Below the pieces are notes generated by a model, which saw only the letters and a program-made list of their open reading frames with translations, made no database searches and was not told the DNA's origin. The position numbers and the translations under genes were made by a program. Shown piece after piece: positions 1,757 through 11,227 of a stretch of 11,227 nt of DNA (the stretch's first letter is position 1; the number at the start of each line of letters is the position of its first letter). The DNA is from a virus (Duplodnaviria; Heunggongvirae; Uroviricota; Caudoviricetes): IMG/VR virus record IMGVR_UViG_2913157538_000006; one strand, written 5' to 3'.

Positions 1757-1795
1757 TGATCTTACCCAGCAATAGTGGACACGCGGCTAAGTGAG
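1757..1795. repeat. IS3 left terminal inverted repeat
   Basis: TGATCTTACCCAGCAATAGTGGACACGCGGCTAAGTGAG matches the reverse complement of the right end at about 30 of 39 positions (aligned by eye). Confidence 0.8.
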
Positions 1796-1821
1796 TAAAC
1801 TCTCAGTCAGAGGTGACTCAC

Positions 1822-2121
1822 ATGACAAAAACAGTATCAACCAGTAAAAAACCCCGTAAACAGCATTCGCCTGAATTTCGCAGTGAAGCCCTGAAGCTTG
1901 CTGAACGCATCGGTGTTACTGCCGCAGCCCGTGAACTCAGCCTGTATGAATCACAACTCTACAACTGGCGCAGTAAACAGCAAAATCAGCAGACGTCTTC
2001 TGAACGTGAACTGGAGATGTCTACCGAGATTGCACGTCTCAAACGCCAGCTGGCAGAACGGGATGAAGAGCTGGCTATCCTCCAAAAGGCCGCGACATAC
2101 TTCGCGAAGCGCCTGAAATGA
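1822..2121 (+). CDS. insE: IS3 OrfA (transposase N-terminal, HTH DNA-binding part)
   Basis: ATG at 1822 is preceded by GAGGTG (1810-1815). Product is 99 aa ([32 protein letters not shown] ...) with a leucine-zipper-like C-terminus. The ORF track begins at an upstream GTG (1813); the ATG is the more likely start. Confidence 0.88.
2084..2088 (+). other. Candidate programmed -1 ribosomal frameshift site (A-AAG) for the OrfAB transposase
   Basis: In the orfA frame the codons read CAA AAG (2083-2088). The -1 frame is open from here into orfB. IS3-family frameshifting at A-AAG or A-AAA-AAG motifs is established knowledge; this exact site is inferred, not demonstrated. Confidence 0.5.
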
Positions 2122-2984
2122 AGTATGTCTTTATTGAAAAACATCAGGCTGAGTTCAGCATCAAAGCAATGTGCCGCGTGCTCCGGGTGGCCCGCAGCGG
2201 CTGGTATACGTGGTGTCAGCGGCGGACAAGGATAAGCACGCGTCAGCAGTTCCGCCAACACTGCGACAGCGTTGTCCTCGCGGCTTTTACCCGGTCAAAA
2301 CAGCGTTACGGTGCCCCACGCCTGACGGATGAACTGCGTGCTCAGGGTTACCCCTTTAACGTAAAAACCGTGGCGGCAAGCCTGCGCCGTCAGGGACTGA
2401 GGGCAAAGGCCTCCCGGAAGTTCAGCCCGGTCAGCTACCGCGCACACGGCCTGCCTGTGTCAGAAAATCTGTTGGAGCAGGATTTTTACGCCAGTGGCCC
2501 GAACCAGAAGTGGGCAGGAGACATCACGTACTTACGTACAGATGAAGGCTGGCTGTATCTGGCAGTGGTCATTGACCTGTGGTCACGTGCCGTTATTGGC
2601 TGGTCAATGTCGCCACGCATGACGGCGCAACTGGCCTGCGATGCCCTGCAGATGGCGCTGTGGCGGCGTAAGAGGCCCCGGAACGTTATCGTTCACACGG
2701 ACCGTGGAGGCCAGTACTGTTCAGCAGATTATCAGGCGCAACTGAAGCGGCATAATCTGCGTGGAAGTATGAGCGCAAAAGGTTGCTGCTACGATAATGC
2801 CTGCGTGGAAAGCTTCTTTCATTCGCTGAAAGTGGAATGTATCCATGGAGAACACTTTATCAGCCGGGAAATAATGCGGGCAACGGTGTTTAATTATATC
2901 GAATGTGATTACAATCGGTGGCGGCGGCACAGTTGGTGTGGCGGCCTCAGTCCGGAACAATTTGAAAACAAGAACCTCGCTTAG
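2118..2984 (+). CDS. insF: IS3 OrfB (transposase catalytic DDE domain; normally expressed as an OrfAB fusion)
   Basis: 288-aa ORF in the -1 frame relative to orfA, with ATGA overlap at 2118-2121. Contains an integrase-like catalytic core (WAGDITYL ... [10 protein letters not shown] ... [13 protein letters not shown]). Confidence 0.88.
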
Positions 2985-3014
2985 GCCTGTGTCCATATTA
3001 CGTGGGTAGGATCA
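2976..3014. repeat. IS3 right terminal inverted repeat
   Basis: Reverse complement TGATCCTACCCACGTAATATGGACACAGGCCTAAGCGAG pairs with the left end. Confidence 0.8.
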
Positions 3015-8320: not shown

Positions 8321-8683
8321 ATGGCTAGCGAACGCAGTACTGATGTGCAGGCATTTATCGGGGAGCTGGACGGCGGCGTATTTGAAACCAAAATCGGCGC
8401 AGTTCTCAGTGAAGTCGCTTCCGGTGTGATGAACACGAAAACCAAAGGTAAGGTCTCACTCAACCTGGAAATCGAACCATTTGATGAGAACCGTCTGAAA
8501 ATCAAACACAAACTCTCATATGTTCGCCCGACTAACCGTGGGAAAATTTCCGAAGAAGACACCACCGAAACGCCGATGTATGTCAATCGCGGTGGTCGCC
8601 TGACTATTCTGCAGGAAGACCAGGGACAATTACTGACTCTTGCCGGTGAGCCTGACGGAAAACTCCGCGCAGCAGGTCATTAA
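8321..8683 (+). CDS. yfdP: Hypothetical prophage protein
   Basis: 120 aa from the ATG at 8321, with GAGGAG 8 nt upstream. The ORF track starts at an upstream alternative start (8237) that lacks an RBS. No recognisable motif. Confidence 0.75.
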   Translation: MASERSTDVQAFIGELDGGVFETKIGAVLSEVASGVMNTKTKGKVSLNLEIEPFDENRLKIKHKLSYVRPTNRGKISEEDTTETPMYVNRGGRLTILQEDQGQLLTLAGEPDGKLRAAGH

Positions 8684-10237: not shown

Positions 10238-10590
10238 ATGTTTTCGAAATGGAAGGGTTTCTTCGCGGGAAATGTGTACCGCGAGATCTGAAAGTGAACG
10301 AAACAAATGCTGAGTACCTGGTACGTAAATTCGACGCGCTTGAAGCTAAATGTGCGGCACTGGAAAACAAAATAATACCAGTGTCAGCTGAACTGCCACC
10401 AGCAAATGAAAGTGTTCTGTTATTTGATGCTAACGGAGAAGGCTGGCTGATTGGCTGGCGTTCTCTCTGGTACACCTGGGGACAAAAAGAAACCGGAGAA
10501 TGGCAGTGGACATTTCAGGTTGGGGACCTTGAAAACGTCAATATCACTCACTGGGCAGTAATGCCAAAAGCACCGGAGGCTGGAGCATAA
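10228..10590 (+). CDS. yfdS: Hypothetical prophage protein (C-terminal motif reminiscent of DUF551-type phage proteins)
   Basis: 120 aa with GGAG 8 nt upstream. Overlaps the yfdR 3' end by 10 nt. Ends ... NITHWAVMPKAPEAGA; the domain assignment is recalled, not searched. Confidence 0.82.
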   Translation: MRMNVFEMEGFLRGKCVPRDLKVNETNAEYLVRKFDALEAKCAALENKIIPVSAELPPANESVLLFDANGEGWLIGWRSLWYTWGQKETGEWQWTFQVGDLENVNITHWAVMPKAPEAGA

Positions 10591-10895
10591 TGACCACATT
10601 TACCAATAAAGAACTGATTAAAGAAATCAAAGAACGAATCAGCAGCCTAGAGGTTCGAGACGATATTGAGCGCCGTGCTTATGAAATCGCACTCGTATCT
10701 CTGGAAGTAGAGCCAGATGAACGCGAAGCCTATGAATTATTCATGGAAAAGCGTTTCGGTGACTTAGTAGATCGTCGGAGAGCAAAAAACGGCGATAACG
10801 AATACATGGCATGGGATATGACTCTCGGTTGGATCATCTGGCAGCAACGAGCTGGTATCCATTTTTCAACAATGTCACAACAAGAGGTGAAATAA
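10590..10895 (+). CDS. yfdT: Hypothetical prophage protein
   Basis: 101 aa. Start overlaps the yfdS stop (TAATG at 10588-10592) with GGAGG/GGAG just upstream, indicating translational coupling. Confidence 0.82.
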   Translation: MTTFTNKELIKEIKERISSLEVRDDIERRAYEIALVSLEVEPDEREAYELFMEKRFGDLVDRRRAKNGDNEYMAWDMTLGWIIWQQRAGIHFSTMSQQEVK

Positions 10896-10991
10896 TAGAG
10901 CCATACAGCCTCACACTCGATGAGGCCTGTCAGTTTCTTAAAATATCCTGATCTACCATCGCCGTCATAGAGCGTATTTTTATTACCTGAT

Positions 10992-11007
10992 TTGCAGGTT
11001 CGATTCC
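10992..11007 (+). other. tRNA T-arm-like 16-mer (TTGCAGGTTCGATTCC), not a complete tRNA
   Basis: Contains the canonical T-loop GGTTCGATTCC preceded by TTGCA. The following bases (CTATTCGG) cannot form the complementary T-stem. It matches my recollection of the tRNA-Arg (argW) T-arm up to the base before the 3' terminal segment. Confidence 0.45.
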
Positions 11008-11026
11008 CTATTCGGAGATAGCACTC

Positions 11027-11227
11027 ATGCAACACGAACTACAGCCTGATTCACTGGTTGATTTGAAATTCATCATGGCTGATACTGGCTTTGGTAAAAC
11101 CTTCATCTATGACCGGATTAAGTCAGGCGACCTGCCAAAAGCCAAAGTTATCCACGGGCGAGCAAGATGGTTATATCGTGACCATTGTGAATTCAAAAAT
11201 AAGCTCTTAAGCCGCGCCAATGGGTAA
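11027..11227 (+). CDS. torI: Excisionase / recombination directionality factor (Tor inhibition protein)
   Basis: 66 aa (MQHELQPDSLVDLKFIMADTGFGKTFIYDRIKSGDLPKAKVIHGRARWLYRDHCEFKNKLLSRANG), a small basic winged-helix protein typical of Xis-type factors, with GGAGA about 9 nt upstream. Sits at the end of the element opposite the integrase. Confidence 0.88.
   Translation: MQHELQPDSLVDLKFIMADTGFGKTFIYDRIKSGDLPKAKVIHGRARWLYRDHCEFKNKLLSRANG

Follow-up and report, generated by a model that had tools for sequence, protein, structure and literature searches.

A conserved copy of the argW T-arm upstream of torI in prophage KplE1 is a candidate binding site for recombination proteins

The defective prophage KplE1 (CPS-53) of Escherichia coli K-12 belongs to a family of elements that use the transfer RNA (tRNA) gene argW as their target. 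The DNA analysed here, called the window throughout (11,227 nucleotides (nt); IMG/VR record IMGVR_UViG_2913157538_000006), is the interior of KplE1, running from the ATG of intS at position 1 to the stop codon of torI at 11227; its yfdT-torI portion is 100% identical to K-12 derivatives. We examined the interval 10896-11026, which is exactly the spacer between yfdT and torI, the gene for the recombination directionality factor (RDF) TorI. This spacer is a recombination joint of two phage modules, with a dead excisionase (xis) stub on the left and a recombination cassette on the right. Within the cassette lies a 16-mer, TTGCAGGTTCGATTCC, identical to part of argW. It is the version found in the E. 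coli lineage of a 13-nt block, CAGGTTCGATTCC, kept before the RDF start codon in many argW-integrating Enterobacterales phages. We tentatively propose, with a confidence just short of an even chance, that selection maintains this block in the torI leader, within the spacer of a predicted promoter, pI, as a site to which TorI and/or IntS, the recombination proteins of the module itself, bind. All features are collected in Table 1.

Comparison with argW established what the 16-mer is. In the K-12-like (MG1655-like) record L001, from which we took the argW, attL and attR coordinates, argW occupies 1937-2011 and reads ...gggctaaTTGCAGGTTCGATTCCtgcaggggacacca, also given as ...GGGCTAATTGCAGGTTCGATTCCTGCAGGGGACACCA. 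The 16-mer matches it at 16 of 16 positions, on the same strand as the downstream attR core, and takes in two variable-loop T's, the 5' T-stem strand GCAGG, the T-loop TTCGATT and CC. The first base past the match is C in the window and T in argW. The identity exceeds the generic T-loop motif GGTTCGATTCC by 5 nt, and the 16-mer occurs once in the window, where a count of 0.01 is expected with up to two mismatches. By rough arithmetic, the chance of finding an exact 16-mer from this 75-nt tRNA in 11 kilobases (kb) is ~3e-4. In its window context (...ttattacctgaTTTGCAGGTTCGATTCCctattcggagatagcactcATG), 19 nt separate the 16-mer from the torI ATG, in keeping with the initial annotation, which had placed it inside the element about 20 base pairs (bp) upstream of torI. 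That annotation had also described a copy of a variable loop, T-stem and T-loop whose stem cannot close, and noted a match to argW running up to the edge of the att core. Both descriptions were right. CCCTA follows the loop in KplE1 where CCTGC is needed, leaving two of the five required bases, and identity to argW extends by a single base into the published core. A tRNA gene or pseudogene was rejected on account of this unclosable T-arm together with ARAGORN, which returned 0 tRNA genes for the whole window, and Rfam, which gave no tRNA match in 10500-11227 even at E<=10.

The 16-mer stands apart from the att site proper. The published KplE1 att core is the 16-nt sequence CTGCAGGGGACACCAT (PMC2951348). 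It is present at attL and at attR (L001 12212-12227), the attR copy lying 294 bp downstream of the 16-mer, and has no match in the window with up to two mismatches, as the initial annotation had supposed. A 135-bp attR, amplified using primer CTCTTAAGCCGCGCCAATGG (attR-IHF2), is sufficient for excision in vitro (PMC3509656). The primer falls at window 11204-11223, 197 nt beyond the 16-mer on the downstream side, and the attR used experimentally therefore excludes the 16-mer, which does not belong to the arm that excision in vitro requires. The earlier suggestion of an extended arm bound by the recombination machinery is thus largely refuted for an excision arm, while protein binding to a regulatory site is still plausible. 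The first GGGTAAAA repeat starts at 11222 and extends beyond the window end. These repeats are presumably IntS arm-type sites, and 10896-11026 contains none of them. The segment matching the 16-mer is likewise not among the attP repeats annotated in HK620, and the five mapped TorI sites all lie in attL (PMC2951348).

Junctions in related elements help to place strand exchange. At the attR junctions of nine relatives (L019, L027, L008, L011, L147, L152, L035, L093 and L170), the core stays identical to the 3' end of argW for only 8, 9, 11 or 12 nt, not 15. These elements may thus have integrated at secondary or variant sites, with strands exchanged close to the left edge of the 16-nt core. Two side observations concern the same region. 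Most relatives (L010-L016 and others) carry, ~60-85 nt past the stop codon of the torI homologue, a P arm beside the core that reads TGCAaaTTCGATgtaTGCAGGGGACACCA, an imperfect copy of the entire argW T-arm preceded by the inverted repeat CCCCTGC...GCAGGGG; KplE1, Sf6 and HK620 have a diverged form, ttcaagtagatgtCTGCAGG (KplE1 equivalent, L001 12190-12227). Separately, Proteus hauseri (L025 4495-4567) and a similar viral contig (L158 3001-3073) carry an opposite-strand tRNA-Arg(CCT) ~1.5 kb downstream of a distant torI homologue, in a different module arrangement from which the conserved block is absent.

We gathered torI homologues from one genome per species and from viral contigs, and counted distinct leader-plus-protein combinations, taken regardless of whether the motif was present. 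The block recurs as CAGGTTCGATT(T)CC, with its GTTCG 28-29 nt before the start codon (26-35 in a few lineages among the distinct leaders listed), and some lineages carry a 1-nt insertion within it (GATTTCC). Its carriers include genomes of Escherichia, Enterobacter, Citrobacter, Serratia, Pantoea and Edwardsiella, two metagenome-assembled contigs and many unassigned viral contigs. Where TorI is at least 95% identical to that of KplE1, the motif GTTCGATT is exact in 22 distinct leaders, has one mismatch in 3 and is absent from 0. At 70-95% identity the corresponding numbers are 29, 1 and 7, and below 70% they are 5, 0 and 10. The sequence left of the block is entirely different among lineages, and the 6 nt to its right are highly variable before GGAG is reached. 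Among 80 E. coli-type leaders, common polymorphisms fall just outside the block (TTGC/TTAC, CCC/CCA, TTCGG/TTTGG), and only rare variants fall inside. In the torI coding sequence of 16 representative lineages, a set picked for carrying the motif, which conveys the scale of constraint and is no formal test, pairwise identity at four-fold sites is only 54%, just 9 of 66 third positions never vary, and no unvarying stretch is longer than 7 nt. The initial annotation had offered the 16-mer as a possible relic att junction, a reading that does not fit the retention of the 13-nt core across genera under strong constraint.

The same comparison shows where the block varies in number or is missing. Several leaders hold two or three tandem copies (L128, L129 and L131, period 16; L125, period 13; L010, period 12), an arrangement that recalls multi-site protein operators. 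Leaders without it (L014, L182-L184) read terminator, (ATT)GCCTG, then GAG...ATG, so that the block behaves as a ~25-nt indel between conserved CCTG and GAG. As judged from these alignments, the block is under purifying selection where present, yet dispensable for the module. The leftmost TTG of the 16-mer is common to the E. coli lineage only, among ~14 lineages compared, and in L012 and L015 the argW match runs on by TG into the core. In Edwardsiella the block has ACAGG where the core implies GCAGG in the tRNA; it does not track the host T-stem variant there, at a position that is weakly informative. Scans of the viral collection and genomes with TorI homologues down to ~60% identity recovered only argW-type cores and no relatives using another tRNA, and the 39-kb phage Sf6 holds the single block with no further copy. 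Elsewhere in the window, a second exact GTTCGATT lies on the minus strand at 8470-8477, in the yfdO/yfdP region, giving 2 copies against 0.34 expected.

TorI is one candidate reader of the block. It binds five 8-bp sites in attL with cores GTTCG, GATCG and GTCCG, which were mutated to CAAGC; its repression of PintS was lost on mutating I3-I5, and mutation of I1-I2 had no effect (PMC2951348). Using the published coordinates, we located I1 to I5 at L001 2017-2107 as CAGTTCGC, CAGTCCGC, CAGTTCGT, TGGTTCGC and CAGATCGT. Their pentamers are preceded by C/T then A/G and followed by C/T. The block contains a TorI-type pentamer, GTTCG, at 10998-11002 within the octamer AGGTTCGA at 10996-11003, and the preceding G (GGTTCG) is shared with I4, TGGTTCGC (Panis et al. 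2010, PMC2951348). Like I1-I5, which overlap PintS, the block sits beside or inside the promoter of a recombination gene of the same module, and it is tandemly repeated in some relatives. A weaker candidate octamer follows in KplE1 (Table 1), and relatives including L126, L130, L010 and L019 carry better ones in the same place (CAGTCCGG, TAGTTCGG and CTGTTCGG). Some relatives have other integrase genes beyond the core, and GTTCGAT recurs shortly upstream of these as well, at 18 nt from the ATG in L016 and L141 and farther away in L019, L117, L150 and L156. There the single GTTCGAT lies between repeated arm-like motifs, and P4-like integrase genes come after an argW-type core; TorI may recognise a site of its type at the int promoters concerned. 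In attL itself, the GTTCG of the argW T-loop (L001 1988-1992) is 31 bp from that of I1 (2019-2023), which is 20 bp from that of I2 (2039-2043). The three are roughly in helical phase, and the T-loop copy could be an unrecognised extra TorI contact.

IntS is the other. Because attR junctions place the crossover near the left end of the core, and the 13-mer abuts that crossover, the block would correspond to the left core-type half-site of attB. Family-wide it is identical at 13 of 13 positions to argW directly left of the att core (16 of 16 in E. coli phages) and has the same orientation as the attP/attR core. It differs from the attB half-site in argW in standing 294 bp from the real core and in having neither an overlap region nor a right half-site, and for that reason it cannot recombine. 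TorI specificity as known accounts for 5-6 of the 13 conserved bases. A site for the IntS core-binding domain would account for all 13, and the two kinds of binding are not exclusive. A more specific proposal, which we consider distinctly unlikely, is that the block is a non-recombining copy of the left half of the argW target, an 'attB half-site decoy', read by the IntS core-binding domain. IntS might then be bridged from the GGGTAAAA repeats ~215 bp away, possibly together with TorI, and the resulting loop would set transcription of the RDF and Int genes.

Table 1. Features of the yfdT-torI spacer and its surroundings, in window coordinates
Feature	Position	Strand	Basis or remark
yfdT	10590-10895	+	Last gene of the SfV-like backbone; homologous to SfV orf28 (open reading frame list, RefSeq and SfV annotation)
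xis', relic 5' end of an SfV/P22-type excisionase gene	10895-10956	+	Homology to SfII/SfIV/SfV xis
Mosaic joint, SfV-type to Sf6/HK620-type homology	10955-10957	.	Alignments; upstream sequence types
Decayed homologue of the intrinsic terminator before the HK620/Sf6/IME10 torI homologue	10958-10981	+	KplE1 stem lost, T-run kept (alignment)
Homologue of predicted pI promoter	10982-11020	+	Database-record prediction; no sigma-70 consensus match
Homologue of HK620 'cII protein' site TTGCCTGATTTGC (L003 2507-2519)	10983-10995	+	KplE1 version TTACCTGATTTGC
16-mer TTGCAGGTTCGATTCC	10992-11007	+	Identical to argW from variable loop to first two bases of 3' T-stem strand
Family-conserved block CAGGTTCGATTCC, 13 nt	10995-11007	+	Equals argW directly left of att core; contains GTTCG at 10998-11002
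Candidate second, weak TorI-like octamer CTATTCGG	11008-11015	+	12 bp after the first; overlaps ribosome-binding site; putative
Shine-Dalgarno GGAGA of torI	11014-11018	+	GGAG kept across family (leader alignment)
torI, encodes RDF TorI	11027-11227	+	
Left end of 135-bp attR sufficient for excision in vitro	11204-11227	+	Mapping of primer attR-IHF2; PMC3509656

The left part of the spacer has a different ancestry. Searching phage records, we found that window 10850-10951 has 93-95% nucleotide identity to SfII, SfIV and SfV, where it covers the last part of the yfdT homologue and the first part of a gene annotated 'xis: excisionase'. The relic, xis', follows the yfdT homologue in the same gene order as SfV orf28-xis. 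The initial annotation had suggested looking in the spacer for a degenerate excisionase-like frame, and xis' is one. About 19 N-terminal codons are nearly identical to SfV/SfII/SfIV xis: KplE1 translates as I-EPYSLTLDEACQFLKIS-stop, that is IEPYSLTLDEACQFLKIS ending at the stop codon, compared with MEPYSLTLDEACDFLKISRPT in SfV Xis, which starts MEPYSLTLDEACDFLKISRPTAINW. No intact Xis reading frame is left. Its start codon is changed from ATG to ATA (10895-10897), an in-frame TGA at 10949-10951 replaces the AGA (Arg) of relatives, and homology ends at ~10956, the part past about codon 21 having been replaced by the Sf6/HK620-type cassette.

The gene order on either side points the same way. 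SfV is arranged orf28(yfdT)-xis-int-attP-gtrA-gtrB, whereas KplE1 reads yfdT-xis'-[terminator-pI-torI-attP-intS]-yfdG(gtrA)-yfdH(gtrB), with a right joint just past the intS stop where the DNA is SfV-like again. Since SfV-like DNA flanks an Sf6/HK620-like cassette on both sides, the KplE1 integration module was exchanged; on this sequence comparison, KplE1 is an SfV-like backbone in which the SfV-type xis-int-attP has been replaced by an Sf6/HK620-type torI-attP-intS cassette. Phage IME10 and many ~40-kb IMG/VR viral contigs share the left joint, and the swap is therefore older than the decay of KplE1. The idea of a remnant of an older integration event is borne out by the xis' stub and is not supported for the 16-mer itself, which came in with the new cassette and which the sequenced phages Sf6, HK620 and IME10 carry in identical form. 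Within the backbone we also noted an IS3 copy (1258 bp, ends TGATCTTACC...GGTAGGATCA) at window 1757-3013 that interrupts yfdH/gtrB with a short target duplication. The same insertion is found in C600, RV308, GM4792 and DTU-1 and is absent from L001.

The cassette begins at ~10957 and holds a terminator remnant, an annotated cII site and pI promoter, torI, attP and intS. In HK620 (L003) the intrinsic terminator is detected at 2483-2502, and none is detected at the corresponding KplE1 position. Neither a sigma-70 promoter nor an intrinsic terminator was found within KplE1 10896-11026. Window 10977-11030 is 98% identical to stretches annotated in HK620 as 'promoter, phage integration' (AF335538) and in Sf6 as 'pI; possible integrase expression promoter' (AF547987), which precede the torI homologues hkaC and gene 18, respectively. 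In the literature we found no experimental mapping of this predicted pI, its start site or its cII dependence. The second TTGC of the KplE1 cII-site homologue is formed by the first four bases of the 16-mer. KplE1 lacks the intact TTGC direct repeats of HK620 and Sf6 (TTGC-N5-TTGC), its half-sites being TTAC and TTGC with a 5-nt gap; at this variant (10985), at least 9 viral leaders among 80 of the E. coli type also have TTAC, and HK620, Sf6 and IME10 have TTGC. KplE1 has no cII gene, and with the first half-site changed to TTAC, any pI function may be silent in the prophage.

The layout of pI nevertheless gives the block a suggestive position. In pI, an activator site is followed after 13 nt by TATTCG; in Sf6 PRE, an activator site is followed after 13 nt by AAGTAT. 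This likeness in geometry, in promoters whose HK620/Sf6 prediction was modelled on lambda pI and pRE, sets the block in the promoter spacer, a classical operator position, where its 13 bp exactly span the gap from the annotated activator site to the presumed -10. The match to PRE has a limit in that the annotated Sf6 PRE site TTGCGAGTACTTGT has a 6-nt gap, compared with 5 nt between the pI half-sites. The authors of the KplE1 study called PtorI 'non-characterized' and argued that excision is switched mainly through control of the RDF gene (PMC2951348). From sequence and position, we infer that TorI through GTTCG, the IntS core-binding domain, or both may bind the block, and that such binding would exert feedback on the transcription that runs into torI and int; in this way the block would probably help to time the excision of the prophage. 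Its origin may have been a capture from argW, with later retention for this regulatory use. Rho-dependent termination reportedly silences torI.

Several other explanations were weighed. One is that the block is kept simply as part of the cII-dependent pI or another torI promoter, its likeness to argW being coincidental. We consider this unlikely, though it retains some weight: depositors of both HK620 and Sf6 annotated this very stretch as pI, the spacing from activator site to -10 resembles that of Sf6 PRE, and ATTGCCTG beside the terminator is also widely conserved. The block would, however, be spacer, and the spacers of Sf6 pI and Sf6 PRE show no similarity. Moreover, the TTGC repeats are not kept in many block-bearing lineages (L018, L012, L015 and L118), no sigma-70-like hexamers were found, and chance would very rarely produce 13/13 identity to the T-arm of the very tRNA that the element targets. 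Outright chance resemblance is scarcely credible for similar reasons. Although GGTTCGATTCC is a generic, easily recognised T-loop motif, and a 3-nt match such as the left-hand TTG of the E. coli lineage is unsurprising among the lineages compared, the expected count stays minimal even with two mismatches, and the family-wide 13-mer equals the T-arm of the tRNA targeted, is oriented like the core and stops where the core begins. An element acting in RNA, in which a T-arm mimic in the torI messenger RNA leader affects translation, processing or stability, is very unlikely. Its leader position just before the ATG would suit this role, and GACAGGTTCGATTCCCTGTC in L018-L020 can form a hairpin. The T-stem of KplE1 cannot close, though, Rfam and ARAGORN gave no signal, RNAalifold predicted 0 pairs across the leaders of 14 lineages, and the block is not transcribed from pI if pI starts as annotated. 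An accessory attR site used to assemble the recombination complex is highly improbable and, for excision, already largely refuted. The resemblance to the attB left half-site and the TorI-type pentamer would fit such a site; the short attR that suffices in vitro, the confinement of mapped TorI sites to attL, the HK620 repeat annotations and the several members that have the same P arm without the block do not.

A neutral relic, in which argW sequence was left behind by an old secondary-site integration or imprecise excision and has no present function, seems to us improbable, although several features speak for it. Identity to argW stops at the left core edge, where the attR junctions of relatives indicate the crossover, L012 and L015 extend the match into the core, the block comes and goes as an indel (L014 and L184 lack it), and a true relic, xis', lies only 35 nt away. 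A relic should decay like its flanks, however, and GTTCGATT is exact in 29 of 37 diverged leaders in the face of divergent four-fold sites and a highly variable stretch right after the block; the block is also present in the sequenced phages Sf6, HK620 and IME10. We considered on paper whether attL, attR, tandem or secondary-site integration could yield it as a simple att junction, and rejected this origin, as none sets the 5' side of argW beside torI without a second illegitimate event. By this reasoning the arrangement calls for two rare events, since it follows from no normal att junction and from no tandem integration. Secondary-site integration followed by imprecise excision could produce the arrangement, and both the indel behaviour and the TG extension are compatible with ancient capture. 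Capture followed by functional retention is compatible with a binding site. Whatever its origin, its present conservation means that the block is no neutral scar.

A number of observations weigh against the binding-site reading that we prefer. The TorI consensus extends no further than GTTCG and, perhaps, the G in front of it. Neither the A two bases ahead of the pentamer nor the A after it, where C/T is the rule, is seen in I1-I5, and the conserved extension ATTCC is absent from them too. GTTCG alone is common, with 13 copies in the window against 22 expected, and KplE1 has a single strong copy of the block, upstream of torI rather than in the P' arm. The 12-bp spacing to the candidate second site fits neither the 10-bp nor the 20-bp phasing of attL. 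The half-site proposal is drawn from the position of the block. L014, L016 and L017, together with a more distant TorI branch, lack the block and have the same P arm; that distant branch keeps GTTCGC sites right of the core. The missing cII gene and altered half-site of KplE1, noted above, belong on this side as well.

P2 Cox, 186 Apl and P4 Vis are excisionases with a second role in repressing transcription close to the genes that encode them. The concept there is the same, an RDF binding promoter repeats to tune recombination genes, whereas the protein families and site architectures differ; none of them is known to use a copy of its tRNA target half-site. The block would be a new candidate in this known class of operators bound by recombination proteins.

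Our analysis accounts for the tRNA-fragment look of the element and shows that the spacer records the replacement of an SfV-type xis-int-attP by an Sf6/HK620-type torI-attP-intS module, at a joint shared with IME10. It also places a conserved candidate control element in the very region that the KplE1 authors noted as uncharacterised (PMC2951348). Should the block bind neither IntS nor TorI, it would be a curiosity of sequence history only. If it binds either one, the 'new paradigm', in which int and the RDF gene are regulated separately, would gain a feedback loop. And if the attB half-site decoy proved true, elements that target tRNA genes would have in it a general means of linking recognition of the target to the decision between integration and excision.

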